Shown here: one piece after another, positions 16,728-53,671 of the stretch
Layout of the letters: each line of letters starts with the position of its first letter
Position numbering within the stretch: the first letter of the stretch is position 1
NCBI GenBank assembly: GCA_016703265.1
Contig: JADJCK010000004.1
Coordinates: 205,520 to 269,519, forward strand
Length of the DNA stretch: 64,000 nucleotides
Origin: a bacterium
GTDB lineage: Bacteria > Krumholzibacteriota > Krumholzibacteriia > LZORAL124-64-63
Direction of reading: 5' to 3'
Notes under the pieces: model-generated
The model's input: the letters and a program-made list of their open reading frames with translations, nothing else
What the model was told of the DNA's origin: nothing
The model's database searches: none
Made by a program: the position numbers and the translations under genes

Positions 16728-17555
16728 TCAAGTGGACAGTTCGAAGTTAGAGTTTTCGGCTTCCCATCTCTCCCTGAAGACCGACGGCGGTACCTTGCCA
16801 AGGCTGTCGTGCGGTCGCTCCTCGTTGTAGTCGAGCATCCAGTTCCAAGCCAGCTCCCGCACCTGGTCAAGGTCGTCGAACAGGTATGCGCTGAGCAGTT
16901 CGTCACGGAACGTCTTGTTGAACCTTTCGATGTATGCGTTCTGGTTCGGCTTTCCGGGCTGGATGTACAGGATCTCAACGCCGTTCTGCTCGCACCAGTT
17001 CACAAACGGCTGACTCAGCAGCTCTGGCCCGTTGTCGCACCGGATGGCATCCGGCACGCCGCGCCAGCTCTTGATTACGTCCAGGGTCCGCACGACTCTT
17101 TCGCCGGGCAGCGACGTGTCGATCTCGATCCCCAAGCACTCGCGCACGCCTTCGTCCAGCACATTCATCGTTCGGAAGCAGCGCCCGCAGTACAACGTGT
17201 CGTGCATGAAGTCGAGTGCCCAGATTCGGTTCGGTTCTGCTGGAACAACTAAGGGCTGACGCGGCCGGTCGCCCAGCCGCTTCTTCGTCCGCCGTCGGTG
17301 ATTCATGCCCAGCTCGCAGTACACGCGGTAGATCCGCTTGTGATTCCAGGGCCGACCATCCAGCCGCAGGCGGTCTCGGTACTTCCAGAAGCCGCGACGC
17401 GGGTGCCTCTCTGCCAGGTCCTGCAACGCATCAATGACCTCGGCGTCGCGCACCAATCGATCCTGCGGCGCCTTGTACCAGGCCGAACGCGACAGCCCGA
17501 TCGCGGCGCAGGCACGGCTCACGGAAAATTTCTGCTCGGCCACCGGATACCTCAC
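16728..17555 (-). CDS. IS3-family transposase OrfB (DDE/rve integrase core)
   Basis: 275-aa ORF with the DDE motif context (ALDFMHD...CDNGPE...NAYIERFNKTFRDE). Normally expressed as an OrfAB fusion by -1 frameshifting. Confidence 0.85.
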   Translation of the reverse strand: MRYPVAEQKFSVSRACAAIGLSRSAWYKAPQDRLVRDAEVIDALQDLAERHPRRGFWKYRDRLRLDGRPWNHKRIYRVYCELGMNHRRRTKKRLGDRPRQPLVVPAEPNRIWALDFMHDTLYCGRCFRTMNVLDEGVRECLGIEIDTSLPGERVVRTLDVIKSWRGVPDAIRCDNGPELLSQPFVNWCEQNGVEILYIQPGKPNQNAYIERFNKTFRDELLSAYLFDDLDQVRELAWNWMLDYNEERPHDSLGKVPPSVFRERWEAENSNFELST

Positions 17556-24422: not shown

Positions 24423-27400
24423 CTAGGAAGCCCCCAGGCTGATCGTCGTCCTGGCGGACCGATCATCCGTTTCGGTGCCATCCCAGATGTGGTGGCCCTC
24501 CCATTCCGCTCCCGCACGCTTGCGGCTCTGGATGGTAACCTGGTTCCGCGGCACATCGATAGTCAGAAGCTGATACGATTGAGGGATGCCTGGCGGCAGA
24601 GCCCGGCTGCGGGCACTGAAACTGCCCGTCGCCAGGAAGTAGACCCGCTGCCGGGTCAACAGATCCATGGCCCCGGCACGATCGCGGTGGATGTGGCCGT
24701 GCAGCCCAAGGCGTGTCCCCAGGGCGCGCAGGTGCCCAGCGAACTGCTCCTCGTCGCGAAAGTCCGCGAGGGGATGATGCCAGACTCCGATTGTCAGCAG
24801 GTCGCCGCTGGAATCGTCCAGCAGCCGCCCCTTCGATCCCACCAATACGTCATCGTGCACCCTTACGTCGTCGGCATGGCAGCGGTCAATGTGCCATGAG
24901 GAATTGTATGCGATGAAGCGCAGACCGATCTGGGGATAGGCGTGCAGGCGAACCTGATCTTTATAGGCCAGCGGATAGGGCTCGCCGTAGACCAGCCGAT
25001 GCAATCGGTGCGAGTACGGCCGAAAGCGATTCGGATAGAAGCCCGCGTCTTTCTTGGTCGGTTCGCAGCCGACCTGCTGCGGGCAATGCCCCAGGTCTGC
25101 CAGGGCCTTGAGGTCGTCCGGCGTGACGTGGCAACAGGTAGCCGCCTCCCAGTCGACGTCGTGGTTCCCGGGTACGACAACCCAGCGCTCGCGCGGCACG
25201 CCCATCCGCTCTTCTAGCATGCGCAGGAACGCATAGACGGAGGCGTACTCGTCCATCGCCGCGGTATCCGCAAGGTCTCCGGTGACGACAACCGAATCCA
25301 AACGCTCGATCTTCAGCCGGTGCTTCAGATCGAACACGAGATCGACCACAAGCTTCCGGATGTTTTCACCGCCGCGGAAGTGCAGATCGCTCAGGTGAAG
25401 GACATGTGCCGGTGCGCGACCGGGTGCAGAACGCTGCGGGATTTCGCACGCTGGGGCTGTTTCGTGCCGGTAATCGACGTCGTGCAGGGCCGCCGCCATT
25501 TCCGGAAGCTCCCAGATCTGGATCTCGCGGCTGCCGTTTGTCGGAACCGCCAGCCCGCCACCGGCGGGATTGAACGACAGACAGCCGCCCGGTTCGTGGT
25601 AGTGCGTGGCATCCATCGCGAGCGAGCCGTCCGCGAGCAGCGAGCCGTCGCGCCACCCCCACAACCGGCAGTGACCGCTGCGGTCAAGCGTCAGCAGGCG
25701 GGAACCGTCCGGCGACAGGCAGAGGCGTACCACGGCGCCTTCCGGCTGAGTCCAGCGGCCACGGTACCGCCGCTCCCTGACGTCCCAGATGCCAATGCGC
25801 CCGTCGTCGCCGCCGGAGATGACAAAGCGGCCCTCTGGCGTCCAGACGACGTCATTGACCGCTTCCAGGTGTCCGGCCGTGATATCGACGAGATCGTTGT
25901 CGACCACGGACCAGATCCTGACGGTTCCGTCGGCTGCGGCCGATGCCAGTTCGTGCCCCGAAGCAGACCACGCCAATGCCCGGACCGGCGCATGATGACG
26001 TCCAAGCGGCGACGAGCGGAGCCGGCAAGCGCCGGGTGTCCGCGTCCACAAGGTAACGGACCCATCGGCGGATCCGCTCGCGAAGGCATCTTCATTGGGC
26101 GCCGCAGCCAGCGCTCCGACACGGCCGTGGCCGGTCTCCAATACGGCCCGGCGCGCCCAGTCCGGCCCATCGAACCTGATGACGCGGCCACGATCGACGG
26201 CCACGATCAGCCCCAGACCATCGGCAGTGCCCGTGACTGCCGTGACATGTCCGTCGATCCGGGCGGTGGCCAGGCAGCGGCGCGCCGTCAAGCTCCATTT
26301 CTCGACTTCTCCGTCCGCGTTGATCAGCGCCAGATGTCGGCCGTCTGGAGTCCAGACAGTGTGGCTGAACCTGCCGCTCCGGCAACCGAGACGCATCACG
26401 CCTTCCGGGTCCACGCGCAGAACCCGAGCCAGTTCGTTCATGGCGTCACCGTTCGCGTCGTCACGGTCGCTGCGCGGATCTCGCGCGGTTCCGGTCTCGC
26501 TGGTCCTGATCATCCATGAGGTAAGCGGTGCAGGCTCGTCCATGCTCGCCGTCCGAACCGGGTCTCCTGCTCCGGCCCGGTCGTGACCACACAAGGCCTG
26601 GAGCTGTGCATGGCGCCGGGCAATTGTGTCGAGAGAAGCACTGTTCATCACATCGGCCAGGGTTGGGGCCACCTTCTCGACGGCGCGTCGCGCGAGTGCA
26701 ACCAGGGCCACTTCGTTACGATCAAGAATCTGCAGCAGCACCGGGTCCAGACGATGGTCAGCTGGACCCTGCGCGATGCCATCGGCGAAGCCGGCGCGGC
26801 GCGCCAGCGCGTCAGCGATCTGGACGACCCCTGCCAAGTCCCAGCGATTCCAACCCTGTACATGGTGCTCAAACGGATCGTGGTGCCCCGCGATGGCACT
26901 GACGGTCTCGGCGGCCAGGTGCGACAACTCGAGCACCTGCGCGGCAACGATGGCGTGGTCTGCTGCGCTCCCGTCCGCCTGGCGCAGGTGACGACGTTCT
27001 CCGTCCTGCGTTGTCAGACCCTCGCCCTGGCAGGTGATCGCCACATGGCGGTAGATGTCTCCGCCGTGCCGGATCAGCAACAACTTGCCGAAATCGTGCA
27101 GGAGCCCCGCCAGGCGAGCCTGTTCGGCGAAAGCTCGATTGCGATGTTCGCCCAGATCATGCGCCAGCTCAGCGACGATCAGGCTGTGGGCGAGCAGATG
27201 GTCCGCGAGCGCGCCCGCCCTGCCGGCCAGATGGCACAGGCCCTGACGCAGCGCACAGTAGTTGACGACGTCGCGCCCCAGACGTGTCACGGCCGTCGGC
27301 AGATCGCTGATCGTGCGCCCGGAGGTTCCGTAGAAGGCGCTGTTGGCGCGGCGCATGATCACGGTGGTCAGATCGGGATCGTTGGCCACGGCTCTGGCCA

Positions 27401-27593
27401 GGCGCCGGTTGTCACTGCACTCGGCTTGGCGCAGCTCCTCAAGCACTACCGCCAACGCCCCGGGCAATGACGCCCGGGCCAGGTTGGGAAGGTCGGGCAC
27501 ATCCACGATGTGGAACAGGTCGGGCTCGCCGGCCGCGCTGGCGGGCTCGTGCTCGATCGTGAGTGCTTCGGCGGTAGTGAATACCAGGCCCAT
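24423..27593 (-). CDS. HDOD domain / WD40 beta-propeller / calcineurin-like metallophosphoesterase fusion protein (1056 aa)
   Basis: N-terminal HDOD (NSAFYG...AVTRLG...AGLLHDFGKLLL). At least four WD repeats (GSADGSVTLWT, AAADGTVRIWSV, GGDDGRIGIWDV). C-terminal metallophosphoesterase motifs (LHLSDLHF, VVTGDLAD, VPGNHD, GHIH). Confidence 0.8.
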   Translation of the reverse strand: MGLVFTTAEALTIEHEPASAAGEPDLFHIVDVPDLPNLARASLPGALAVVLEELRQAECSDNRRLARAVANDPDLTTVIMRRANSAFYGTSGRTISDLPTAVTRLGRDVVNYCALRQGLCHLAGRAGALADHLLAHSLIVAELAHDLGEHRNRAFAEQARLAGLLHDFGKLLLIRHGGDIYRHVAITCQGEGLTTQDGERRHLRQADGSAADHAIVAAQVLELSHLAAETVSAIAGHHDPFEHHVQGWNRWDLAGVVQIADALARRAGFADGIAQGPADHRLDPVLLQILDRNEVALVALARRAVEKVAPTLADVMNSASLDTIARRHAQLQALCGHDRAGAGDPVRTASMDEPAPLTSWMIRTSETGTARDPRSDRDDANGDAMNELARVLRVDPEGVMRLGCRSGRFSHTVWTPDGRHLALINADGEVEKWSLTARRCLATARIDGHVTAVTGTADGLGLIVAVDRGRVIRFDGPDWARRAVLETGHGRVGALAAAPNEDAFASGSADGSVTLWTRTPGACRLRSSPLGRHHAPVRALAWSASGHELASAAADGTVRIWSVVDNDLVDITAGHLEAVNDVVWTPEGRFVISGGDDGRIGIWDVRERRYRGRWTQPEGAVVRLCLSPDGSRLLTLDRSGHCRLWGWRDGSLLADGSLAMDATHYHEPGGCLSFNPAGGGLAVPTNGSREIQIWELPEMAAALHDVDYRHETAPACEIPQRSAPGRAPAHVLHLSDLHFRGGENIRKLVVDLVFDLKHRLKIERLDSVVVTGDLADTAAMDEYASVYAFLRMLEERMGVPRERWVVVPGNHDVDWEAATCCHVTPDDLKALADLGHCPQQVGCEPTKKDAGFYPNRFRPYSHRLHRLVYGEPYPLAYKDQVRLHAYPQIGLRFIAYNSSWHIDRCHADDVRVHDDVLVGSKGRLLDDSSGDLLTIGVWHHPLADFRDEEQFAGHLRALGTRLGLHGHIHRDRAGAMDLLTRQRVYFLATGSFSARSRALPPGIPQSYQLLTIDVPRNQVTIQSRKRAGAEWEGHHIWDGTETDDRSARTTISLGAS

Positions 27594-27806: not shown

Positions 27807-28574
27807 TTAACAATCCTCCCGGATAAATCGCTCGAGGAATGCCTCGTAGGCCCCCTTCATCGGCAGCCCCAGATCGACGCATAGACCGCGTCCCGAAGCT
27901 CGGGCCCCCGTACCATCTGCGTCGGAGACCGTTGACGATTGATTGCCTTCCCAGTAGACACCAATGCCGCGGCGCTGCCAGGCCGGCAGGTCATTGAAAT
28001 TGATGCCGGCCCGCTCATACAACAGGTCGTTCTTGGCGGCAGTCGACATCCCCGCGAGCTGAGTCGCAGACTCGGCCGGGGTCCGGCCCTCCCGTCGCAA
28101 CTGCCAATAGCAGTGTCCGTTCAGTGCATTGCGGTGGGCGTCATCGGCGCGCCAGCGGAAGTAGCTCAGGACGCGCGCCCGGTCGGGCAACTGGGCGATC
28201 CGGGCGTCGAACGCCGCGGGTATCCCCAATCGGTGGGTAAACCACGCGCTGGCTTCGCCGGCCAGGATCGATTCGTACTTACGAAGCTTGCGGCCAAAGG
28301 CGTCTTCGTCGCGGTCCAAAAGCAACGAGATCTCATCGCTCTGCGTGTATGCATAGACGACGCGAAATCCGCACGACATCAGGTGCTTGGTCGTCTCGAC
28401 CATGTGGTCGCGAAATGATTCGTCATACGGTGCGGTGAAACAACACACTTCGCGTGTCAGGCGGGTGAAGTTGCGGCCATCGATCCGCACTACAATGTGC
28501 AGGCCTGGCAGGACACAATGGTCGTGCGCGGTTTCGAAGATCCGCATCGCGGTATCAAGATCCGTGAACCTCAT
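27807..28574 (-). CDS. tRNA(His) guanylyltransferase Thg1-like protein (3'-5' polymerase)
   Basis: ATG at 28574. HIVVRIDGRNFTRL and AYTQSDEISLLL match Thg1 catalytic motifs. Confidence 0.8.
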   Translation of the reverse strand: MRFTDLDTAMRIFETAHDHCVLPGLHIVVRIDGRNFTRLTREVCCFTAPYDESFRDHMVETTKHLMSCGFRVVYAYTQSDEISLLLDRDEDAFGRKLRKYESILAGEASAWFTHRLGIPAAFDARIAQLPDRARVLSYFRWRADDAHRNALNGHCYWQLRREGRTPAESATQLAGMSTAAKNDLLYERAGINFNDLPAWQRRGIGVYWEGNQSSTVSDADGTGARASGRGLCVDLGLPMKGAYEAFLERFIREDC

Positions 28575-29013
28575 CGCGCCACTCCTCGACTGCGAAGCCA
28601 CCCCTCGGCACCTGTGAGACATACCATAGTTGCGTGAAACCCTCGGCAAGGCTTGGCAGCCTCAGCCGCCCAGCCGTGCCCCGGACGGCCGCGTCCGGCA
28701 CGCGTTCAGGGCCGGAACGGAGCCGGTTGCGCTCCAGACAATCGGTGACCACGCTTCGGAAATAGTACCCCACAACCTCGTAACCCGCGGCCAGAGCCGG
28801 CACGATAAAGCGCGCGCGTTCCGCGATGCTCGCATTCGTGTTGTCGACGACAAAAGGCCGACGCTCGAGGATACATGCCTCCAACAGCGTCGCTTCGCGA
28901 CGTCTCGTGCGCAGCGAGTCGAGATTCAAGCGCACGTGGGTGTCGGCGAAGCGCTGCTGGCAGAACGTCGACTTTCCGGCAGCGGGAAGGCCGATGAGAA
29001 TAACTGCATGCAT
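28555..29013 (-). CDS. P-loop kinase (polynucleotide-kinase-like) partnered with the Thg1-like gene
   Basis: Walker A GLPAAGKST at the N-terminus. 152 aa. 20-nt overlap with the downstream Thg1-like start. Confidence 0.6.
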   Translation of the reverse strand: MHAVILIGLPAAGKSTFCQQRFADTHVRLNLDSLRTRRREATLLEACILERRPFVVDNTNASIAERARFIVPALAAGYEVVGYYFRSVVTDCLERNRLRSGPERVPDAAVRGTAGRLRLPSLAEGFTQLWYVSQVPRGGFAVEEWRDEVHGS

Positions 29014-29325
29014 GTGTCTTCATCACCCGGTCGGATCCTGAACGGCACGGTGGCCCCTGAATCCTGGTGGCGAGCGACGGCCTCATCAGAGTCCGCTGCG
29101 CGATGTACGTCCCGTCCACATGTTGTCAAACATGCGGATGGAATTCAACTGCGAACAACCGAACGATCGACGGAAACACCGCGGGACTGCGGAATCCGGT
29201 TTCCCGGGAACCGCGCCGTCCTCTACAATGGGGGCCGATCGGAACCTGACGGCGGTTCGACGTCGACTTCGTCCCGGCGCCGCGGGCTTTGCGAGCCGGG
29301 TCGTCCTCAAACGGGAGTACGTGAA

Positions 29326-30336
29326 GTGAGCCTGAGCTGCACCGTCCTGGGCGCCCCCGGCAAGGACAACGCCCTGCTGGTGACCGTCGACACCGGCCAA
29401 TCTGTCCACAGGCTGCTATTCGACTGCGGGGACGGGTGTTTGACCGGTCTGCCGATAGCCGACATTCTCGCGATTGACCACTTGTTCCTGTCGCATCTGC
29501 ACATGGACCACATTGCCGGCTTCGACACGTTTTTCCGATGCACCTTCGATCGCTCCAGTCGGCCCAATCGGGCGTGGGGCCCGCCTGGAACCGCGCGCAT
29601 TCTCCAACACCGGTTCCAGGGCTTCCTGTGGAACCTGCACGAGCAGATGCAGGGCACCTGGCGTGTCACCGACATCGGCCCCGAATGCCTGCACACGGCA
29701 CGCTTCGAACTGGGTGAGGCGTTCGCCGCGCTTCACGACGACTGCATGGAGGAGCGGTCCGCGGTCGTTCTGGACCATCCTCAGTTCACCGTCGAAGCCA
29801 TTGCCATGGAGCACCGCACCACCACTTTGGCTTACATCGTGCGCGAGAAGCCACGCCGCAACATCGACGTCACGCGTCTTGGCGCGCTCGGCTTGCAGCC
29901 TGGCCCATGGCTGAAGCAACTGAAGGAAGCGATCGATCCGGATTCGACCATTGTTGTCGAAGGAGTTGCGCATACCGCCGGCACACTTGCCGAGTCACTT
30001 GTCAGCGAAACTCCAGGCGATTCCGTTGCCTATCTGACGGACTTTCTTCTCGACGACCAGGCGATGGATGCTCTCGTGCCGCGGCTGCGCGAATGCAACA
30101 CCGTCGTCTGTGAGGCGCAGTACAGGCACGCGGATCTGGACCTTGCGCATCGCCATTTCCATATGACCACCGTCTTGTCCGCAACGTTGGCACAACGAGC
30201 AGCCGTCCGGGAGTTGGTACTCTTTCATCTGTCGGAGCGATATTCGCGAAGCGAATGGCTGGATATGTTGAACGAGGCGCGGGCCGTGTTTCCCAGGACG
30301 CGGTTCGCGGATTCCTGGCGCCTGGATGCCGACTAG
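29326..30336 (+). CDS. metallo-beta-lactamase-fold hydrolase, RNase Z/RNase BN-like
   Basis: GTG at 29326 with GGGAG Shine-Dalgarno. HxHxDH motif LFLSHLHMDHIAGF. Divergent from the kinase/Thg1-like pair. Confidence 0.7.
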   Translation: MSLSCTVLGAPGKDNALLVTVDTGQSVHRLLFDCGDGCLTGLPIADILAIDHLFLSHLHMDHIAGFDTFFRCTFDRSSRPNRAWGPPGTARILQHRFQGFLWNLHEQMQGTWRVTDIGPECLHTARFELGEAFAALHDDCMEERSAVVLDHPQFTVEAIAMEHRTTTLAYIVREKPRRNIDVTRLGALGLQPGPWLKQLKEAIDPDSTIVVEGVAHTAGTLAESLVSETPGDSVAYLTDFLLDDQAMDALVPRLRECNTVVCEAQYRHADLDLAHRHFHMTTVLSATLAQRAAVRELVLFHLSERYSRSEWLDMLNEARAVFPRTRFADSWRLDAD

Positions 30337-31125: not shown

Positions 31126-31617
31126 CTATCCCAGCAAGCGTTCGTAGACTTCAAGATCTCGCGCCGAGAAGCAGCAGAACTGCACCTCTTCGATGCCCTG
31201 TGGTGCCGAGCGGACCGTCGCGATGGCCGTTGCAGCCGCCTCTTCTATCGGATAGCCGAAGATGCCCGTGCTGATGCTGGGGAACGCAAGCGTCCTGATC
31301 CCATTCGCGACGGCGACCTCCATCGAGCGGCGGTAGCATGACGCCAACAGATCCGGCTCACCATGGGTACCGCCGCGCCACACCGGTCCGACGGTATGAA
31401 TGATGAAGCTCGCGGGAATCCTGTAGCCACGTGTGATCTTCGCATCTCCCGTTCGGCAGCCGCCCAGCAGCCTGCACTCGTGCACCAGTTCTGGACCTGC
31501 CGCACGGTGAATGGCACCATCGACGCCACCACCACCCAGCAGCGACGAGTTTGCAGCGTTGACGATCGCCTCTACAGGTACCTTCGTGATGTCGGCCTTA
31601 ACGGCCCGGATGATCAT
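31126..31617 (-). CDS. macrodomain protein (MacroD/YmdB-like ADP-ribose-binding hydrolase)
   Basis: [25 protein letters not shown] and [12 protein letters not shown] motifs. ATG at 31617 ([12 protein letters not shown]). Confidence 0.8.
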
Positions 31618-31683
31618 GGCGTCTCCAGTTCGGGCTCTCAAGCGTGCCGCGCGACACAGATCCGCAGTCTCCAGCCAAGCCCA

Positions 31684-32325
31684 TCAATCGACGGCCAACT
31701 GCAATCGGCCGGCGATCGCCGGATCACGGGGGCGGTACACACGTTCGCGTGGGGCCTGAAGCCCGGCCACCCCGGCGACCGCAAGTCGGGCTCGTTGGTC
31801 GGCCACGAATCCCGACACATCCATGACCTCGATCAATTCGTTGCACCCGTATGACTTCAGAACGCGTCCGCGCAGGCCCAACTGGACAGCTCTTCGTGGC
31901 AAGCGGGCGCCGAATGGGTGATGATCTGGGTCCCATCGCAGCCTTACCTCTGACGTCTTCAGCGCGCGGGACCATTCGCCTTCCGTGGCGAACTCGCCAC
32001 AATCCCACAACGAGGGCACCGCCTGGGCCAACAACGAGTCAAAAAACACCTGTCGTATGCGCAATGCCAGGACGGTTTCCTGCCCGACTTTGGTGCCCCA
32101 TCCGGAGCGATACATCATCCACAGGAAATTCGGCTTCACCCAGCTCATTCGTGAATAGCTGAAGCCGGGTCCGAATGTCCCGTGTTCGGCGGCATATTGA
32201 CCAGTCGGCGATCGGAATGCCTGATAGACGATGATTGTGTCGTCGTCGTACTGGGCGAGTATGTGGCGCCCTTCCGCGGGCCACAGCTTCACCTGCTCCA
32301 GATAGGATTCGGTTTCCAGATTCAT
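31684..32325 (-). CDS. DUF4291-like protein
   Basis: ATG at 32325 (MNLETESYLEQVKLWP). Conserved block TIIVYQAF...YSRMSWVKPNFLWMMYRSGWGTKVGQE...LRWDPD. Confidence 0.55.
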   Translation of the reverse strand: MNLETESYLEQVKLWPAEGRHILAQYDDDTIIVYQAFRSPTGQYAAEHGTFGPGFSYSRMSWVKPNFLWMMYRSGWGTKVGQETVLALRIRQVFFDSLLAQAVPSLWDCGEFATEGEWSRALKTSEVRLRWDPDHHPFGARLPRRAVQLGLRGRVLKSYGCNELIEVMDVSGFVADQRARLAVAGVAGLQAPRERVYRPRDPAIAGRLQLAVD

Positions 32326-32359
32326 TCGTCTCACCTTGGGCCCTCGCGCAGACTCTCGA

Positions 32360-32902
32360 CTACGGCAGCTTGTTGGGCGATTCAGCGGGCGCCGGTGGCG
32401 CCTCCAGAGGCATAAGACCCAGATCCGCCTCGACAACTTCCGCATACTCCACGAGCGTTGCGATCACTTCACAATAGGCATCGAGAGCGCCGGTGGCCAT
32501 GCTCTGCGCTCGCCGCAGCAGGTCGTCTTCGGCTGCCGCCAAGCGTGCGTCGGCGTCCCGCAGACTTTTCAGCATGACTCCGGTAACGCCATGTTCTGCC
32601 GTGAGTACCGCGACGATGGTCGCCAACTTGCCGAACTGATCGACGATTGCTGAGGCGTGGAGATTCACGCGCTCCGATGTGACATCCGTCCACGTGGCGC
32701 CCCTGGCCGACACCAGATCGGTCATGGCTTCCACGCGTTCGCTGATTTCCCGGCTCGGCGCCAATATGCGCTTGAGGCTCTGTGCGTCCGCTGCCAGGGC
32801 GGCCATGGCCGCGGAGGTGTCACTCCGCAGTGCCGATTGCAGCTGGCAGGACTCGAGCGCGGTCCCGAACAGGACACATGTTGTCAGCCGGGCTGACATG
32901 GC
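32360..32902 (-). CDS. hypothetical helical protein
   Basis: ORF 32360..33070; start uncertain (MSARL at 32902 avoids overlap with the upstream gene). Confidence 0.4.
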   Translation of the reverse strand, partial: AMSARLTTCVLFGTALESCQLQSALRSDTSAAMAALAADAQSLKRILAPSREISERVEAMTDLVSARGATWTDVTSERVNLHASAIVDQFGKLATIVAVLTAEHGVTGVMLKSLRDADARLAAAEDDLLRRAQSMATGALDAYCEVIATLVEYAEVVEADLGLMPLEAPPAPAESPNKLP

Positions 32903-32943
32903 GTCGACAGGCGCTGCTTCACCGCGGCGGATCGCCTCCTGGA

Positions 32944-34440
32944 TCAGATCGCGCGCGGCGACCAGGTCGGCTCGTGCCGCCTGCTCGGAGACTGGATCCC
33001 GTTCCGCAGGTACCTGAATTTCAAGGCCGACCAGGGAACAACCCGTCGGCATGTACCTCGCCAGGCACACCGGCGTGCGGCCGAACGCTCCTTGCGGTTC
33101 AGGTACTCGCTCAAGGGCTCGATCGTTTCCGGGCTGGGCGCGGCGCCCAGCCCGGACGCGTAGAACACCTGACTGGCCGCGACATGCACCGCATTCGGCC
33201 TGCTCAGCAAGGTACTGGCGGCGGCATTGCCGGCGATGACGCCCTCACCGCCAAGTTGTTCCGCTGCGGCGATGCGATCGGCTTCACACTGATGTGTCGC
33301 GCGAGGCTCCGTCCGTGTCGCCAGAACTTCGCTCCAGCGCTCGGCGAAGGTCGCCTGGTCAAGACGCGACGCCTCGACGGCAATCAACTCGCCAACGGAG
33401 TCTGGAAGGACTCCGCGGCGCAGGAAGTGCGACAATTCAGCCTCGACAACGGATCTTCCCGAAGCCAATTCGTGCAGCCGCCGCGCGGTTGCCGCGAACT
33501 CGTTGCTGCCGGCCACCAGGGTCTCGTAGCGATCCGCATCGAACTCCATCTGGCGCAACTGGAACGAACTGATGAGCACGCCGACTTCCATAAGCAGGCG
33601 CAGGATCGCACGCGAGATCCACACCATGCCACGAGCAGCCCAGCAAACCACAACCAACGTCACATGTTGCGAGCCGACCCCGTTGTCGAGCCACTCGTCC
33701 AGGCGATCCCGCTGGTACACGACCCGCGAGAACCACCAGTTGACAGAGCGAATCACGTACGAGACACGCATCGCGCCGCCTTGTGCGAAATGGCCCAACT
33801 CATGCGCCATGACGCCGGTGAGTTGCCGCAGGGACATGCCGGCCAGGAGCGGCGTTCCGATCGTCAGCACAAGGTCGTTACCAATGAAGCTGAACATGCC
33901 GCGGCGGAATGCGGCCGAGGCATTGACGTCGCAGTTCACTCGTATCTCGCGCGGTCTCGGCGCTTGTAGCGTGTCGGCGAGACGGTTCACGTGGGCATGC
34001 AGTTCCGGTTCTGCAATGGGGTCGAGCACCACATGATCGGCCCGGTAAGCGGCACGGCTGAAGAGCGGCTTGATCAGAAAGAGCCAGGTAATGCTCCCGA
34101 CGATGAGCGGGCCAAGGTAAAATGTGAGTTGGAGACGGCCCATGCCGTGGTCGAAGATCGCCAATCCACGAACGGCGTGCGTGGCGATCAGCCACGCCAG
34201 TGCAGCCAGCAGGCCCACGTACAGCATGGGCAGTAGAATCATGCCCGCCGCCACGATTGTCGTGCCCAGGTTGTAGCGCGCCGGGCGGCGAGGCCGATTG
34301 ATGGCGTTGGTCGTCCAGACCGTCGCTACCGCGATGGGTTCCTCTGCAACGGGGCTTTGCACAGTGAATTCCTTGGTTGAAGAACCAGACGCACGCGCGA
34401 GTGGCAGGACACACCGCCCGCGTACGATCTCGAAGATCAT
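32944..34440 (-). CDS. M48/M56-type membrane zinc metalloprotease
   Basis: TM helices, then HELGH with a downstream EFDADRYE third-ligand motif. ORF extends to 34581; ATG at 34440 (MLTKTD) is preferred. Confidence 0.65.
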   Translation of the reverse strand: MIFEIVRGRCVLPLARASGSSTKEFTVQSPVAEEPIAVATVWTTNAINRPRRPARYNLGTTIVAAGMILLPMLYVGLLAALAWLIATHAVRGLAIFDHGMGRLQLTFYLGPLIVGSITWLFLIKPLFSRAAYRADHVVLDPIAEPELHAHVNRLADTLQAPRPREIRVNCDVNASAAFRRGMFSFIGNDLVLTIGTPLLAGMSLRQLTGVMAHELGHFAQGGAMRVSYVIRSVNWWFSRVVYQRDRLDEWLDNGVGSQHVTLVVVCWAARGMVWISRAILRLLMEVGVLISSFQLRQMEFDADRYETLVAGSNEFAATARRLHELASGRSVVEAELSHFLRRGVLPDSVGELIAVEASRLDQATFAERWSEVLATRTEPRATHQCEADRIAAAEQLGGEGVIAGNAAASTLLSRPNAVHVAASQVFYASGLGAAPSPETIEPLSEYLNRKERSAARRCAWRGTCRRVVPWSALKFRYLRNGIQSPSRRHEPTWSPRAI

Positions 34441-34603
34441 CATGTCGGTCTTCGTCAGCATCTGTGACAAAAAGCGCGAACCGCAGCCAGGACCGGCAAC
34501 GTTGACCTCCCTTTCCGCACAACAACGGACCCGCAGTCGCGATAACGACGCTATCGCCGAAGGAGACCGCGCAGAATTCATGAGGCTGTGCGCGGTTTGT
34601 CCT

Positions 34604-35034: not shown

Positions 35035-36201
35035 TTGAAGCAATCAAACGAATCCGACCGCGATGAGGCAGCAAGGGCCCCCGTCGCGACCTGGCTGAGC
35101 GAGCGGATGCCTGAGCCCGTATCGCGGGCCATCGCAAGACTGTCGACCTGCGACGATGTGGTGAAGATCGCCGTGATGCCGGATGTGCACCTGGCTGCGG
35201 ACGTCTGCAACGGAGTCGTCGTGGCGACGCGGGAGCGACTCTATCCGCAAGCTGTCGGTGGGGATATCGGCTGCGGCATGACCGCACTGCGGCTTGACGG
35301 CAGCGCAGGTCTCTTGCGCTCCCGGCATCAGGCGCAGCAGATACTGAAGGGGCTTGAGACGGCCGTGCCGATCGAACGTCATTCGCGGGCCACCGTCGCC
35401 GATGAACTGCCCGGCGATCTGCGCGACCAGCCCCTGAGCGATCCTGCAATGGCGCTGCAGGCCGCGCGCACGGGCCTGTTCCAGCTGGGTACGCTGGGGC
35501 GTGGCAACCATTTCCTGGAGATCCAGGCCGACGACCAGGACCAGCTCTGGCTGATGGTCCACAGTGGCTCGCGGGGTCTTGGTCAGGCGATTGCGATGCG
35601 GCATCTGGCGCGCGCGGAGGATTCCGGTCGCGGCCTGCGCTCGCTGGACGCGGGCAGCGACGACGGCAAGGCCTACCTGAACGACATGGACTGGGCGGTC
35701 CGCTACGCCAGCCGGAGCCGACTGGCCATGGCTCGCGCGGCGGCTCACCTGCTCGAAGCGGTACTCGGCGCTCCGGCGGTCGAGAACTCGCTTGTCGACA
35801 CCCCGCACAACCTGGTTCGCCAGGAGAACGTGGCCGGGCAGCAGCTCTGGATCCACCGCAAGGGCGCCATGGGCGCCCGGGAGGGAGAGCCCGGGGTGAT
35901 TCCCGGGGCCATGGGCGCCATCAGCTACCATGTCACCGGACGCGGCAGCGAGGAAGCGCTGAACTCGTGCTCGCACGGGGCGGGTCGCGCCATGAGCCGA
36001 ACGGAGGCGCGGCGGCGGATCACGCGACGCGATTTCGAGCGCCAGGTGGGAGACCTGTGGTACGACGAACGCCGCGCCAACGATCTCCGTGAGGAATCTC
36101 CGGGCGCCTACAAGGACCTCCGCCTCGTAATGAAGGCACAGGCCGATCTCGTGCGTATCGACCGCCGCTTGCGGGGCGTGCTGACCTACAAGGGGATCTG
36201 A
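35035..36201 (+). CDS. rtcB: RNA ligase RtcB (3'-phosphate/5'-hydroxyl RNA ligase)
   Basis: APVATW...IAVMPDVHLAADV, GGDIGCGM, GRGNHFLEIQ, HRKGA motifs. TTG at 35035 gives the N-terminal spacing expected before the MPDVH block; ATG at 35107 is the alternative start. Confidence 0.85.
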   Translation: MKQSNESDRDEAARAPVATWLSERMPEPVSRAIARLSTCDDVVKIAVMPDVHLAADVCNGVVVATRERLYPQAVGGDIGCGMTALRLDGSAGLLRSRHQAQQILKGLETAVPIERHSRATVADELPGDLRDQPLSDPAMALQAARTGLFQLGTLGRGNHFLEIQADDQDQLWLMVHSGSRGLGQAIAMRHLARAEDSGRGLRSLDAGSDDGKAYLNDMDWAVRYASRSRLAMARAAAHLLEAVLGAPAVENSLVDTPHNLVRQENVAGQQLWIHRKGAMGAREGEPGVIPGAMGAISYHVTGRGSEEALNSCSHGAGRAMSRTEARRRITRRDFERQVGDLWYDERRANDLREESPGAYKDLRLVMKAQADLVRIDRRLRGVLTYKGI

Positions 36202-37244: not shown

Positions 37245-37712
37245 TCACATGACGCTCATTCGAATCGCGTGACACAACTTCACGATCTGCGCATCCTCAA
37301 GATCAATATCAAGCTGGCGCAGGCGACGACGTCCCAACCGTCGATCCAGCATTGCGAACGCACGGATCAGGTCGTCTTCTGAATGAAGTGCCTCGTCGAT
37401 GTTGCAAGTCAGATATTCCTCGACGGCACGGATGAACTCTTCTTCGTCGTAGACATCCTGCTCGGCCACTTCATCATGCGTGTATCTGGCATTCAGCTTC
37501 TTGTAGTACCCGGCGCCGAATACCTTCTCGCCGTCAAGGGTGATCCAGGCCTCGCCGACGTCGTCGTGCGCGCCGCGATATGAAGTCACGTAGATGTCGA
37601 CCCGCTTGCTGAGCTCTGGGCACAGCATGCTCTTGAAGCTCTTTCTCTTGCCGGACCAATTCATCGCTTGCACAATCTCCTTGTTCACTCGTCGCGAGGC
37701 GGGCTCGTTCAC
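37245..37712 (-). CDS. hypothetical protein (155 aa), within the rtcB2-prfH operon
   Basis: ORF with compact intergenic spacing (62-74 nt) to its neighbours. No motif recognised. Confidence 0.5.
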   Translation of the reverse strand: MNEPASRRVNKEIVQAMNWSGKRKSFKSMLCPELSKRVDIYVTSYRGAHDDVGEAWITLDGEKVFGAGYYKKLNARYTHDEVAEQDVYDEEEFIRAVEEYLTCNIDEALHSEDDLIRAFAMLDRRLGRRRLRQLDIDLEDAQIVKLCHAIRMSVM

Positions 37713-38139: not shown

Positions 38140-38787
38140 CTATTGCCCTGCACGCCGCCCGCCCCGCGCGCGGAAATCTGCGCCCTCGTACACCCGAATC
38201 GGATTCCCTCTCTCCAACTGATCGTGCCCCTCCCAGCGCTGCTGCCTGGCAGCATCCAACTGGCGCTCACCGCTGCGGTGCACCAGAATCGCCAACCGTT
38301 CCAGCGCGCGCTTGCGATTGGCGATCTGGGATCGTTCATCGCGAGCGATGGCCACCAGCCCTGTCGGGACATGGACAGCGCGGACGGCCGACTCCGTGGT
38401 GTTCACGTGCTGTCCGCCGGGACCCGAGGCGCGCATCACTTCAATCCGTACATCCCGCTCGGAGAACACCGGTGTCGCGGGTACGGGGACGCGCCGCACG
38501 CCGACAAACCAGTTCTTTCGCTTGTTTTCGGGCCGGAAGCGCGAGGTGCCGATCCACTGGACGGTGCCCTCAAGGGTCGCAGCAAAGGCGGCGCAGTCAT
38601 CGCCGGACAGGTGAATCAGAGCCGAGAGGAGCGTGCCGGGTTCCGGCCCGGGCTCGGTTTCGATCAGTTCGGCGTTGAGTTCGGCCCCACGCGCCTCCAT
38701 GAGGAGCACTTCGACCAGCTGTGCGGCCACCCAGGCGCACTCCACCGGCCCGCGGCCGGATGTGATCTGAATCAGCTCTGTGCTCAT
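38140..38787 (-). CDS. prfH: peptide chain release factor H (PrfH), GGQ-containing RF paralog
   Basis: SGPGGQHVNTTESAVRAVH motif. 215 aa, lacking the RF N-terminal domain. Start overlaps the rtcB2 stop. Confidence 0.85.
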   Translation of the reverse strand: MSTELIQITSGRGPVECAWVAAQLVEVLLMEARGAELNAELIETEPGPEPGTLLSALIHLSGDDCAAFAATLEGTVQWIGTSRFRPENKRKNWFVGVRRVPVPATPVFSERDVRIEVMRASGPGGQHVNTTESAVRAVHVPTGLVAIARDERSQIANRKRALERLAILVHRSGERQLDAARQQRWEGHDQLERGNPIRVYEGADFRARGGRRAGQ

Positions 38788-39941
38788 CTTTCCCTGACCT
38801 TGTACGTCAACACGGGGGTGAACGAGGCGATGACCCGGATCAGGCCGAACGTCTGCATGTTCTCGATGATCGTCTCGATGTCCTTATAGGCCTGGGGGGC
38901 TTCTTCGTACAGCAGGCTCTTGTCTTCGCAGATGACGTAGCTCCCCACGCCGGTCCGGCGCAGCGAGTCGGCGCTGTAGCGCTCCCGCAAGCGGCCCTCG
39001 CATTCCGAGCGGCTCCATTTGCGGCCGGCTCCGTGGGCCACGGACCAGAGATTCGGCTCCTGTTCGCCGCTCGGCATCACCAGATAGCTGGCTGCTCCGC
39101 GTGATCCTGGGATGACAACGGCGCCGGCATCAGAGGGGGCTGCGCCTTTGCGGTGCAGACAACAGGGCCCATCGTCGGTCGCCACCTGAGTGACGGAATT
39201 GTGCACCAGATCCACCACGCGGCGGTATCCGCTCCCCAACTGTTCGAGAAAGCGCAGCGCGATCAGTTCCCGGTTGGCGCCCGCCCAGCCAATGGCATTC
39301 TGGTGACGTTCCAGGTAGATCGCGGCTTCCTCGCCGCCGGCGGCCAGACTGCCATCGCGGAACCGGGTTGTATGGGCCCGCAGCAACGCTTCGCCGAGTC
39401 CGCGGGAGCCTGAATGCACCAACAGCGCAAGTGCGTCCTTCTTCAAGCCCAGCGACTGGAATGTCTCGGGGTCCGGGATATCCTTCGCGCGCAGGAGTTC
39501 CGCAAAGTGGTTGCCGCCACCGATCGTGCCCACAGATCTGGCATGGCCCTCTTCCCGGGCCCCACGCTCTTCGAGCCAAGCAACCGCATCGCCATCCCAC
39601 GGCTCTTCCAGATGGCAGAGCTTCTTGGACCATCTTTCCGGCTTGGCTCTGGCCACCTCAAGATCGGTCGCGAACAGCCCCATACCGCAACCCACGTCCG
39701 AACCGACCAGATGGGGATAGAACTCCAGCCTCGAAAGCATGGCGGCGCCAACCGGCGAGCCCTTTCCCGGGTGCAGGTCCGGGAAGCCCGCAACCCTGAC
39801 CATGCCGGACAAAGCGGCCACCCGCTCCAGCTGGCGAAGCGCTTCGCCCTCGATTCGGGCGTCAGAGGTGGCGAAGAGTGAGATCGGCTTGTCGTTCACG
39901 GGATGCGTTCCTTCTGTATTTCGATCGGCTTGGCTCGGCAC
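38784..39941 (-). CDS. rtcB: RtcB2, PrfH-associated RtcB-family RNA ligase
   Basis: FPDLHPGKGSPVG, GSDVGCGM, GGGNHFAELL, HRKGA motifs. Immediately upstream of prfH. Confidence 0.85.
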   Translation of the reverse strand: MPSQADRNTEGTHPVNDKPISLFATSDARIEGEALRQLERVAALSGMVRVAGFPDLHPGKGSPVGAAMLSRLEFYPHLVGSDVGCGMGLFATDLEVARAKPERWSKKLCHLEEPWDGDAVAWLEERGAREEGHARSVGTIGGGNHFAELLRAKDIPDPETFQSLGLKKDALALLVHSGSRGLGEALLRAHTTRFRDGSLAAGGEEAAIYLERHQNAIGWAGANRELIALRFLEQLGSGYRRVVDLVHNSVTQVATDDGPCCLHRKGAAPSDAGAVVIPGSRGAASYLVMPSGEQEPNLWSVAHGAGRKWSRSECEGRLRERYSADSLRRTGVGSYVICEDKSLLYEEAPQAYKDIETIIENMQTFGLIRVIASFTPVLTYKVRER

Positions 39942-40110: not shown

Positions 40111-40470
40111 CTACTCATAGATCTTGCCACAATAGAGCATGACTGCGAACTGCTTCCAGGGATTGTCAGGCGACAGCTCGCCGAAATCGGTGTCTTCAGC
40201 CCATCTGGCGGCCGCGCTCAGGAACGTGTCGATCTTCGTGTTTTCCCACCCACCCGCGTCCGGCCCATACCGTGAACTCGGCTCGGCGCGCTCGGCCGTG
40301 ATCGCGCGCTTGCGATCCTCAATCAGTGCCTGGACGAATACGAGTAGGGTCTGGGAATCACAGACATCATCAAGCACCTCGTGCAGCTCTTTGCGCGGCG
40401 GCTCCACGGGTTGCGGTACGGATCTCGACACTCTCTTGGCGCGTTTTTGCGAGGACATGGATTCACTCAC
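40111..40470 (-). CDS. hypothetical protein (119 aa)
   Basis: ORF only; acidic C-terminus. Confidence 0.4.
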   Translation of the reverse strand: MSESMSSQKRAKRVSRSVPQPVEPPRKELHEVLDDVCDSQTLLVFVQALIEDRKRAITAERAEPSSRYGPDAGGWENTKIDTFLSAAARWAEDTDFGELSPDNPWKQFAVMLYCGKIYE

Positions 40471-51792: not shown

Positions 51793-52846
51793 TCAGTATT
51801 CGCGAAGATCTTCCAGGCTGACCTCGATGCCGCCTTCGCCAGGCTCAGCTGCCAGCGCCTTGTCGTAGAATGGGGCCTCTCGTCCGCGCCGGTCCGATCG
51901 GCTCCGCTCGCGGCGGCCCACCTGCCTGTAGATCTCGGCCATCGCGATCGTTGCGAAGAGCCGATAGTGATAGGCGAATTCGCTGTGCGGCAGTTCGATA
52001 TGGACGAGCGTGGCACCAGCGAACCGCTCTGTCGCCAGATCAGCGGCGCACATGCGGGCCTCGTCCGGAATGACGATCAGCTGTTCCGGGCCATTGGACA
52101 GTCGGGCCTGCCCAAGTGGTGTTCCCATTCCCCTGGTGTTTACGACGACGACCTCCCGGAACGACAAGCGCGACCCCGGTTCACCGGCACCAGCCTGGTG
52201 GTATTTCGACTGGCGCGCGGCGGCACGCCCCTCCGCGCGCTTCCAGCGCTCAGATCCGAACCACACGCCGCCGGGATCATCGATCAGGCATCGGCGCCAG
52301 CCGAACGCGCACGCGGAGCGGATCGCGCTGCCCAACTCCACATGATCGTCGCCTCCGACCAGCAAAAGCTCGGGGCGACGGCCGTCCGGACTTCCGCCGG
52401 CGCGCATCCGGCCGACCCCACCCCGTGTCAGATAGTAGAGGCCGACCCCCGAAGCGGCGGCGACATTGAGGCAGTTGATCGCTTTGGAGTCCATCGGGAT
52501 CTCCACGGCTGCAGACATGGAGGCCGTCACTTCGCGGGACAGCCCGCGGCGCTCGTTCCCAACGATGAGCGCGGCCGCCGTCGACCGCGGCAGCCGGTAC
52601 CCGTAGATGGCTTGGGCGCCGGCGCTGTTGTCGAAACCAATCAGGAGGGGGAACGCCTCCGTGAGCGCGGCGATGGTGACGTCCGGCACTGCAAGGCCGT
52701 CTTCGTCGCCTCTCGCTTCCGTCAGCCCTTGCGTATCGCGGAAGAGGCATGTGCAGCCGAACATCTCGGCGGCGTGCATCATCGTCTGCGCGTTGTGGTG
52801 GTTCTCGATGCCGTCACCAACGAGCGCAATTCCAGCTGTCTTCATC
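51793..52846 (-). CDS. SpoU/TrmH-family RNA 2'-O-methyltransferase with a second degenerate SPOUT-like half
   Basis: ATG at 52846. ALIVGNERRGLS...VEIPMDSKAINCLNVAAASGVGLYYL. Confidence 0.7.
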
Positions 52847-52945
52847 GGTGGACGTCCTTCTGTGCGACTACTCCGCGCAGCTGATGTCTCCGTCGATGTC
52901 CGCGGAAAGGGCCGTCGGCGCCCCACCGTGCTTGCTGCGCGTTGC

Positions 52946-53671
52946 TCAGTCCGTCTCTTGATCGCGTTTGCGCCCGAAGGCGCCCGTCGCTGCCGCCTGC
53001 CCCGTCCAGTTGATCCGACATTGTCGCGCGAACGCATCGGCAAAGGCCTCATGGTCGCTGGTCCTGGCTGCCGCGCTTCGCATTCGGCGACGGGAGTGTT
53101 GGATCAGGTGGTGACCGATCTCATGGACCAGCACGTCGAAGAGCATAAAATCACGAAGTGCCGCCCGGCTGGGCCAATCAACGACGGTGACGGTGCCGGC
53201 GTTGACGACCTCGACACTCGCACCCGCCCGCTCCAGCTGCGCCACCGCCCCGGCGTCGACAATCCCGTCGATCCGCCACGGAGGAGGAGGCTGGGCGAAG
53301 AGAGTGATGCACCCGGGATTCTCGTACCGCCCCAGTTTCAGCTGCCGGGATCCGTCATTCGCCGAACCCAAGGTGATGCAGCGCAGGCCATAGTAGCACT
53401 CCGGCCCGAGGCGCAGCAGGGCTTGTCTGATCTCCCGCCTGTTCAGGACGTGCTCACGACCAGGCCGGGGACGAGTCTCGACAATCCGCGGAAGTATCGC
53501 CCGACGAATCCGACGCGGCTCGCTGGGCTGCGGCACAACGCCTCTCAACTTGAGCTGCCTGGCCACCCGCCGTCGCTGCCGCGCATCGCCCGCGCTGCGC
53601 GGCGCCCGCGGATCGGCCGTGCGATCGGTCGCGATCAGGATCCGTGGTCTCGTGTGCTTGCTCCGGGACAT
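52946..53671 (-). CDS. ImmA/IrrE-like (DUF955) HExxHxxxH zinc peptidase domain protein with Arg-rich N-terminus
   Basis: ATG at 53671. DVLVHEIGHHLIQH followed by EAFADAFARQ. Confidence 0.45.
   Translation of the reverse strand: MSRSKHTRPRILIATDRTADPRAPRSAGDARQRRRVARQLKLRGVVPQPSEPRRIRRAILPRIVETRPRPGREHVLNRREIRQALLRLGPECYYGLRCITLGSANDGSRQLKLGRYENPGCITLFAQPPPPWRIDGIVDAGAVAQLERAGASVEVVNAGTVTVVDWPSRAALRDFMLFDVLVHEIGHHLIQHSRRRMRSAAARTSDHEAFADAFARQCRINWTGQAAATGAFGRKRDQETD

Follow-up and report, generated by a model that had tools for sequence, protein, structure and literature searches.

[quoted passage not shown] This linkage has been in print since 2010, when the kinase was predicted to phosphorylate 5′-OH RNA and macro domains were seen in a subset of the Thg1–PNK neighborhoods (Anantharaman, Iyer & Aravind; PMC2904730). 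Biochemically, 3′–5′ polymerase activity has been demonstrated for the TLPs of B. thuringiensis and M. acetivorans, and the repair of 5′-truncated tRNAs by TLP is published (PMC3061083); our search of the literature found no assay of the TLP-linked kinase clade. More distantly related in their logic are the Pnkp–Hen1 and RtcB/RtcA repair systems and, on the 3′ side, the tRNA 3′ endonucleases of the RNase Z/ELAC1 type and the RlaP (PF10127) 3′-end nucleotidyltransferases of RNA-repair operons (PMC12776372).

Here we compare these systems with a locus in a 64,000-nucleotide stretch of bacterial DNA, hereafter the window, in which a TLP–kinase pair stands next to a divergently transcribed hydrolase of the MBL fold. 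A preliminary description had combined all three genes into a single tRNA 5′- and 3′-end repair unit. We favor, at a probability of about three in four, the reading that the locus consists of two independent things, a kinase–TLP cassette and a stand-alone RNase Z of the NF002558 subfamily, whose adjacency is narrow-clade synteny. The features are the following.

27807..28574, minus strand: Thg1-like protein (TLP), 3′–5′ RNA polymerase family, 255 aa; Pfam Thg1 and Thg1C
28555..29013, minus strand: polynucleotide-kinase-like P-loop kinase, 152 aa; Pfam AAA_33
29014..29325: divergent intergenic region from kinase start to MBL start, 312 bp
29326..30336, plus strand: RNase Z-family MBL hydrolase (NCBIfam NF002558 subfamily), 336 aa; start GTG 29326
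31126..31641, minus strand: macro-domain protein (context), Pfam Macro 1.7e-46; in relatives 163 aa, 31129..31617
35035..36201, plus strand: RtcB RNA ligase (context), 388 aa, start TTG 35035; Pfam RtcB 3e-81

The domain E-values of the TLP, kinase and MBL genes lie well outside the range of chance.

First, the kinase–TLP cassette is a widespread arrangement, of which the window is a fresh instance. Both the Thg1 catalytic domain (1.4e-29; 103.1 bits against a cutoff of 29.2) and the Thg1 C-terminal domain (Thg1C, 1.9e-15; 57.5 bits against 26.3) of the TLP pass the Pfam gathering scores, bearing out the original call of a Thg1-like gene. The protein is 100% identical to a 255-aa database protein, which places its start at ATG 28574 and not at the upstream TTG 28649. 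In the PDB it is closest to the M. acetivorans TLP (5axk, 8.6e-25), by homology to which the window TLP may be expected to have 3′–5′ polymerase activity. Residues D32-G33-R34 and S79-D80-E81 are invariant across 20 homologues, the window protein included, and by analogy with the family they would supply the catalytic metal-binding carboxylates.

The partner gene had likewise been recognized correctly as a 152-aa Walker-A kinase overlapping the TLP gene by 20 nt (28555..28574): it matches AAA_33 (1.5e-14), its Walker A sequence is GLPAAGKST, and mammalian PNKP kinase domains head its PDB matches (1e-12). In an alignment with the kinase domain of mouse PNKP, D32 falls on the NRD Asp, and the traits of the PNK family are present, namely the Walker A motif, the catalytic Asp after strand 2 and the lid arginines; G8, G13, K14, D32, D57, T59, R66, N96 and R99 are invariant among 60 TLP-linked kinases. 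The scores fall below the cutoffs of TIGR01663, for PNK-3′Pase (47.6 vs. 502.8 bits), and of TIGR04075, for bacterial Pnkp (18.5 vs. 750), and since both model multidomain proteins with the kinase domain alone in common, the window protein is better termed PNK-like and placed outside those equivalogs.

Set against the bacterial TLP–PNK operon (PMC2904730; PMC3061083), the window agrees in both families, in the kinase-then-TLP order, in the overlapping frames and in the conservation of catalytic residues, and it resembles a subset of such operons in having macro-domain and RNA-ligase genes close by; it departs from them in a slightly longer kinase C-terminus and in its overlap of 20 nt, where 8 nt is usual. 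Such pairing, rightly described from the outset as known, is broad: in 63 of 80 diverse TLP loci, drawn from many phyla, an orthologous kinase gene immediately precedes TLP, mostly with an overlap of 8 nt. Given the overlap of their stop and start codons, kinase and TLP are probably coupled translationally. With Pnkp–Hen1 and RtcB/RtcA the cassette shares the logic of an end-healing kinase, and an RtcB gene lies 6.4 kb off; in contrast to those systems, the window kinase protein carries neither a ligase nor a phosphatase domain, the window has no Hen1, and TLP polymerizes instead of ligating.

Second, the MBL gene encodes a member of the RNase Z family. Its raw open reading frame spans 28630..30336 on the plus strand; a GGGAG preceding GTG 29326, together with 336-aa gene calls in relatives, led us to take this GTG as the actual start, which leaves the 312-bp divergent gap listed above. 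The protein passes the NF002558 ‘ribonuclease Z’ model marginally by score (316.4 bits against a cutoff of 315; 2.1e-94) and does not reach the TIGR02651 equivalog cutoff (135.7 vs. 292.95). Its best PDB sequence matches are the RNase Z of B. subtilis (1y44, 3.8e-18), ELAC1 and the E. coli enzyme 2cbn, and a Foldseek search with its AF2 model (pLDDT 89) is headed by the RNase Z/tRNA complexes 2fk6 and 4gcw, followed by 2cbn, with a best value of 6.9e-19 and a full-length TM of about 0.7 to the complexes. Thus, the proposed resemblance to tRNase Z holds, and the protein groups with RNase Z/BN and not with beta-lactamases or glyoxalase II.

With RNase Z/ELAC1 (1y44, 2fk6; E. coli ZiPD/RNase BN, 2cbn) it shares the MBL fold, the HxHxDH motif (H57-L-H-M-D-H62), the His and Asp ligands further along the chain, the C-terminal motifs HxT and HLSxRY and, putatively, an arm segment with the GP motif. 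All metal ligands are kept, H57, H59, D61, H62, H137, D239, H279 and H301 being invariant in 25 orthologues. The conserved GLxPGPW segment (G189-L-x-P-G193-x-W195) aligns at the sequence level with the ‘PPGPVYQKIKKG’ region of B. subtilis RNase Z and may correspond to the flexible exosite arm through which RNase Z binds tRNA. Points of difference are an identity of about 22% to the solved RNase Z structures and an extra segment around residues 95–135. No NF002558 member is known to have been characterized, and on the likenesses just listed the window protein would be a tRNA 3′ endonuclease dependent on zinc and cutting 3′ of the discriminator base. In L156, an ortholog precedes by 1.2 kb an array of 23 tRNA genes, none of which encodes CCA (0/23), as one would expect if the family worked as canonical tRNase Z. 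The subfamily is common in Verrucomicrobiota and Planctomycetota.

Third, the linkage between the two parts is confined to the window's own clade, and it is here that the claim of a third member in a tRNA 5′/3′-end repair unit fails. No RNase Z-type MBL gene stands beside the TLP–kinase pair in any of 80 diverse TLP loci, 62 of them with at least 2 kb of upstream sequence. A profile of the MBL family, run against the same 80 loci, matched nothing except an RNase Z-like fragment 9.5 kb off in L012; if any MBL-fold gene is admitted, generic MBLs in L045 and L049 join that fragment. For so large a superfamily, we roughly estimate that chance alone would produce about this many hits (3 of 80), and none of the three is an NF002558 member adjoining a TLP–kinase pair.

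The reverse view gives the same picture. Of 80 metagenomic loci with an ortholog of the MBL gene, 79 fall outside the window lineage, and 53 of these can be judged (at least 1 kb upstream). Neither TLP nor kinase occurs at any of the 53, and the only locus of the 80 with both is L088 (91% identity), which belongs to the window lineage. Six further orthologs inspected individually (59–64% identity) also lack TLP and kinase (0/6), and their contexts are unrelated and differ from one another; a conserved neighbor of the MBL family, sought as a hint of function, was not found. The trio is known only from the window and three relatives, L082 (MBL identity 97%), L088 (91%) and L083 (69%). Neighborhood conservation, proposed at the start as a check, therefore ends with this clade, and the lack of linkage outside it leaves the three-gene repair unit with no comparative support. 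The adjacency is best read as synteny inherited within a single narrow clade rather than as a conserved functional unit.

A search of the 312-bp gap for a shared regulatory element returned no sigma-70-like consensus site and no Rfam family match; conservation of the gap is limited to near-identical relatives, and the corresponding gap in L083 measures 178 bp and is not conserved with the window.

Which genes, then, do recur beside TLP? Unbiased clustering of the neighbors in the 80 other TLP loci yields only the kinase (64 loci), RlaP (8) and Hen1 (5, near TLP–kinase). In 8–9 of the 80 loci, spread over four phyla and including that of Aeoliella sp. SH292 (L052), RlaP genes accompany TLP as a pair, with or without the kinase, and the same holds for the relatives L082 and L083. 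RlaP is not in the window, where synteny with L082 ends 23 bp past the TLP stop codon; the RlaP pair is lost from the window. RlaP is the 3′-end restoration function for which the preliminary description had looked to the MBL protein; its fold, that of a Pol-beta NTase, is unrelated to the MBL fold, and it adds nucleotides instead of cleaving (PMC12776372). A different candidate, an HDOD–WD40–metallophosphoesterase gene downstream of TLP considered as a 3′-phosphatase partner, was discarded, since the relative with 97% identity and all 80 TLP loci lack it.

Against the reading as two independent parts stands the idea that the MBL gene could belong to a lineage-specific RNA-repair island. The 12 kb around the trio (27.8–40 kb) are dense in RNA-repair genes, with a macro-domain gene, an ART-like DUF4291 gene, RtcB and RtcB2–PrfH, to which the relatives add two RlaP genes. 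The window RtcB, 98% identical to a 388-aa L082 gene, starts 43 nt downstream of tRNA-Arg(ACG), and elsewhere an RtcB gene within 10 kb of TLP is rare (3 of 80 other loci); in a second lineage (L093, L094, L096), the MBL ortholog itself adjoins RtcB. In its fuller form, the proposal is that the MBL protein was recruited in this lineage to work with the kinase and TLP as well as with the RtcB, macro and ART-like genes close by. It would trim damaged or 2′,3′-cyclic-phosphate tRNA 3′ ends for the CCA-adding enzyme, and the 5′ strand would be rebuilt by kinase and TLP. A precedent comes from eukaryotes, in which tRNase ZS (ELAC1) is reported to take the 2′,3′>p off ANKZF1-cleaved tRNA, after which TRNT1 re-adds CCA (bioRxiv 10.1101/2021.08.05.455008). 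Furthermore, CCA is encoded in 6 of 6 tRNA genes seen in the window lineage, so that purely canonical 3′-trailer removal is not obviously needed for them, and L083 keeps the trio together despite different flanking genes on both sides, which is weak evidence of local selection on the adjacency.

Nevertheless, we consider recruitment improbable. Linkage outside one clade is nil in all three surveys (0/80, 0/53 and 0/6), the genes are divergently transcribed across an intergenic region in which window and L083 show no conservation, and the recurrent 3′-end partner elsewhere is RlaP. The window MBL, moreover, retains every family-invariant residue, with no specialization visible. More doubtful still is the more specific version in which, within the window's Planctomycetota/Verrucomicrobiota-like (PVC) clade, an RNase Z-subfamily enzyme joined an island of TLP, PNK-like kinase, macro/ART-like and RtcB genes (with RlaP in relatives) as a bacterial counterpart of ELAC1-type 3′-end recycling, its neighbors rebuilding both strands of the acceptor stem.

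Two readings that would change the role of one protein are very unlikely. One would make the MBL protein an Apyc1-type cyclic-nucleotide phosphodiesterase, active in signaling or anti-defence and with no role at tRNA ends. It draws on weak precomputed Pfam matches to PF23023 (Anti-Pycsar_Apyc1) and on a match to the NCBIfam model cyc_nuc_deg_phdiest (1.3e-12) that nonetheless reaches only 47.7 bits against a cutoff of 400. The NF002558 match is far stronger, Foldseek places Apyc1 at rank 30 (1.4e-07 vs. the 6.9e-19 of RNase Z), an ortholog adjoins the CCA-less tRNA array, and the 336-aa protein keeps the GP-motif segment aligning with B. subtilis RNase Z, a putative arm that Apyc1 is not known to have. 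The other, that TLP serves tRNA-His maturation through G-1 addition and not repair, appeals to the original function of the Thg1 family and to the ability of TLPs to add a templated G-1 opposite C73 (PMC3061083), yet the close relative L082 encodes G-1 in its tRNA-His gene (5′ GTGGATG... / ...CGTCCAC-CCA), the tested bacterial TLP favors 5′-truncated tRNAs 5–160-fold without tRNA-His specificity (PMC3061083), and the conserved kinase partner points to 5′-OH substrates (PMC2904730).

Finally, if the locus is indeed two independent parts, its working can be pictured as follows. The P-loop kinase would phosphorylate a 5′-OH RNA end, and TLP, using ATP, would activate the 5′-phosphate so made and add Watson–Crick-templated nucleotides in the 3′–5′ direction, reading the 3′ strand of the acceptor stem as template. 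A 5′-truncated tRNA would thereby be rebuilt, an activity known from bacterial and archaeal TLPs and expected by analogy in the window. Separately, the MBL protein would act as a tRNA 3′ endonuclease, and the recurrent 3′-end partner of TLP–kinase, where one exists, is the RlaP pair, kept in relatives and lost here. A real three-gene unit would be the first one predicted in bacteria to restore the tRNA acceptor stem at both ends by means that include a nuclease step. What the data describe is an ordinary TLP–kinase cassette beside a stand-alone RNase Z-family gene, the negative on linkage being drawn from about 140 independent loci, and they make TLP–kinase together with the RlaP pair the better lead for coordinated 5′- and 3′-end repair.

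The locus holds three genes, two on the minus strand and one divergent from them:

27807..28574, minus: Thg1-like protein (TLP), a 3'-5' RNA polymerase, 255 aa (Pfam Thg1 1.4e-29, Thg1C 1.9e-15)
28555..29013, minus: PNK-like P-loop kinase, 152 aa (Pfam AAA_33 1.5e-14)
29326..30336, plus: MBL-fold hydrolase (MBL), 336 aa, start GTG 29326 preceded by GGGAG

The final 20 nt of the kinase gene lie over the TLP start, which is the ATG at 28574; the upstream TTG of the raw TLP frame was rejected, as a 255-aa, 100% identical database protein fixes the ATG. The raw plus-strand frame (28630..30336) far exceeds the MBL gene, which we delimit as listed because homologues and gene calls in relatives measure 333–339 aa and the GTG start yields 336 aa. 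A gap of 312 bp separates kinase and MBL. The preliminary description gave the gene arrangement correctly.

That description also likened MBL to tRNase Z, and judged by its sequence and predicted structure MBL is indeed a member of the RNase Z family. With 316.4 bits it marginally clears the threshold (315) of NF002558, an NCBIfam model for a "ribonuclease Z" subfamily, and lies under the TIGR02651 equivalog threshold (135.7 vs 292.95). Its sequence matches in the PDB are Bacillus subtilis RNase Z (3.8e-18), human ELAC1 and Escherichia coli ZiPD. An AlphaFold model built with 25 orthologues (mean pLDDT 89) retrieves B. subtilis RNase Z/tRNA complexes (6.9e-19) and E. coli 2cbn as top Foldseek matches, with Apyc1 only at rank 30 and true beta-lactamases lower. 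Across the 25 orthologues there is no variation at H57, H59, D61, H62, H137, D239, H279 or H301, and conservation extends to a GLxPGPW segment. The subfamily pass, the PDB and Foldseek matches and the invariant ligands therefore place MBL outside the beta-lactamases and glyoxalase II. Orthologues sharing 45–69% identity, mostly labelled ribonuclease Z, occur commonly among Verrucomicrobiota and Planctomycetota.

The closest solved structure to TLP by PDB sequence search is the Methanosarcina acetivorans TLP (5axk, 8.6e-25), followed by human and yeast Thg1; the DGR and SDE motifs of the window TLP do not vary in 20 homologues (57–66% identity) from many phyla. The only solved relatives of the kinase are mammalian PNKP kinase domains (1e-12), with Asp32 aligned to the "NRD" aspartate, and its NCBIfam matches to PNK-3'Pase and bacterial Pnkp are domain-level, far under the thresholds of those multidomain models. 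Invariant across 60 TLP-linked kinases are G8, G13 and K14 (Walker A), D32, D57, T59, R66, N96 and R99.

TLPs of bacteria and archaea extend 5'-truncated tRNAs by templated nucleotides, preferring them 5–160-fold over full-length ones, and also act on tRNAs other than tRNA-His (PMC3061083); the linked PNK-family kinase is predicted to provide the 5'-phosphate that TLP next activates (PMC2904730). By analogy, the window kinase would convert a 5'-OH end to a 5'-phosphate, which TLP would adenylylate before filling in the 5' strand of the acceptor stem with the 3' strand as template. Addition of G-1 to tRNA-His is an unlikely purpose of TLP, since the tRNA-His gene of L082, a locus of the window's own lineage, encodes G-1. 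MBL itself would cleave tRNA 3' ends as a zinc-dependent endonuclease. For the subfamily, a canonical tRNase Z role has its best contextual support in locus L156 (6001-11292), where a 23-tRNA array encoding CCA in 0/23 genes lies 1.2 kb downstream of an NF002558 ortholog of 45% identity.

The proposal that these three genes form a unit repairing both tRNA ends finds no comparative support. From the TLP side, GTDB contigs, one genome per species, were searched with an alignment of 20 TLPs, which gave 80 loci (Bacteroidota, Bacillota, Cyanobacteria, Chloroflexota, Planctomycetota, Proteobacteria, Myxococcota, Acidobacteriota and others). In 63 of them the gene immediately upstream of TLP is the kinase, and in 49 of these 63 the two share an identical 8-nt overlap. 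No relative of the window MBL occurs in any of the 80 at E<=1e-5; in 62 of them the sequence upstream of TLP spans 2 kb or more, room for an MBL gene. At E<=0.01 an MBL-family profile HMM finds a single fragment, at the edge of locus L012, 9.5 kb from TLP; L045 and L049 carry generic MBL genes unrelated to ours. Finding three MBL-fold genes among 80 such loci, each ~20 kb long, is, as a rough estimate, about chance level for so abundant a superfamily.

From the MBL side, 80 metagenomic ortholog loci include kinase and TLP only in L088 (MBL 91% identical), which clearly belongs to the window's lineage; neither gene occurs in the remaining 79, of which 53 extend 1 kb or more upstream. Both are likewise absent from six orthologues examined singly, in unrelated and mutually different contexts: P0124, P0125 and P0130 (63–64%), a Planctomycetia MAG (61%) and a pair of Chthoniobacter records with a common context (59%). 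No conserved neighbour of any kind was found for the MBL family. TLP-kinase stands divergent from MBL only in three relatives, L082 (MBL 97% identical), L088 and L083 (69%). The adjacency is inherited synteny within one clade, and the TLP-kinase pair is a further instance of the cassette described in 2010 (PMC2904730).

Alternatively, this lineage could have recruited RNase Z to an island for acceptor-stem repair, which we regard as improbable. In L083 the trio is intact though its surroundings on either side are unlike those in the window (a microviridin-type insertion on the right, DUF1810 and the 3'-end nucleotidyltransferase RlaP on the left), and the window is dense in RNA-repair genes from 27.8 to 40 kb:

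31126-32445, minus: adjacent macro-domain and DUF4291 genes, 2 kb from TLP-kinase, conserved in L082
34832-36201: RtcB (start TTG 35035), two tRNA-Arg genes (CCA encoded) 43 nt upstream
38140-39941, minus: second RtcB (385 aa), then an RF-1-domain PrfH-like protein (215 aa), in RtcB2-PrfH order
37245-37712 and 40111-40470: SF0329-family and DUF7660 genes flanking RtcB2-PrfH

RtcB2-PrfH pairs are ribosome-rescue/rRNA-repair modules. DUF4291 is predicted to be ART-like (an atypical ADP-ribosyltransferase), with links to macro and KptA neighbourhoods (PMC12522546), so that it and the macro-domain gene may be a writer/eraser pair. Furthermore, CCA is encoded in 6/6 tRNA genes seen in the lineage; RtcB lies directly upstream of the MBL ortholog in a separate lineage (L093, L094 and L096, 84–99% identical to one another); and ELAC1 offers a eukaryotic precedent for RNase Z-type 3'-end recycling (bioRxiv 10.1101/2021.08.05.455008). 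These points argue weakly for a local link. However, the kinase-MBL intergenic region is unconserved between window and L083, in its 312 bp no shared promoter and no RNA element can be recognised, and MBL has no family-atypical residues among the 25 orthologues.

In that separate lineage, from peat metagenomes (L093:2449-7294), RtcB and the MBL ortholog sit amid five tRNA genes, one with a UUA (ochre-suppressor-type) anticodon, and a second MBL-like ORF follows downstream. Between its tRNA-Arg genes and RtcB, L082 (15508-17186) has an extra 313-bp segment, absent from the window, with tRNA-Ser(GCT) and tRNA-His(GTG, G-1 encoded). An M48-peptidase-like gene, a single 700-aa ORF in L082, is two overlapping frames in the window (32363-34461, minus; break ~33064), an apparent frameshift reflecting a pseudogene or assembly error.

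Nucleotide synteny with L082 runs no further than 27784, a point 23 bp beyond the TLP stop codon, and other genes occupy the sequence beyond:

24423-27593: HDOD-WD40-metallophosphoesterase, 1056 aa
16728-27784, other replacements: short HD_4 ORF, IS21 IstB/IstA remnants (21684 to ~23800), Ser/Thr kinase
16728-17555: rve integrase

The L082 SpoU gene and the gene beside it have homologues in the window at 51796-53671. The window has lost the RlaP (PF10127) pair present in L082 (6085-7848) and L083 (5340-7086).

Unbiased all-against-all ORF clustering of the 80 TLP loci yields only the kinase (64 loci), RlaP (8) and Hen1 (5), the methyltransferase of Pnkp-Hen1 RNA repair, as recurrent neighbours. 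Hen1 lies ~3 kb upstream of TLP-kinase (e.g., L052:5763-7175). Two RlaP genes flank TLP(-kinase) in 8–9 of the 80 loci, spanning four phyla: L002 (Bacillota), L007, L010, L031 and L052 (Planctomycetota; e.g., L052:8126-9540), and L029 and L041 (Anaerolineae); L019 (Geobacteraceae) bears a single copy, with RtcB. RlaP extends damaged RNAs at their 3'-OH by 1–2 nucleotides and is required for restored aminoacylation of repaired tRNA (PMC12776372). RlaP is thus a better candidate than MBL for the 3'-end partner of TLP-kinase, their association being a recurrent "5'-end plus 3'-end" pairing.
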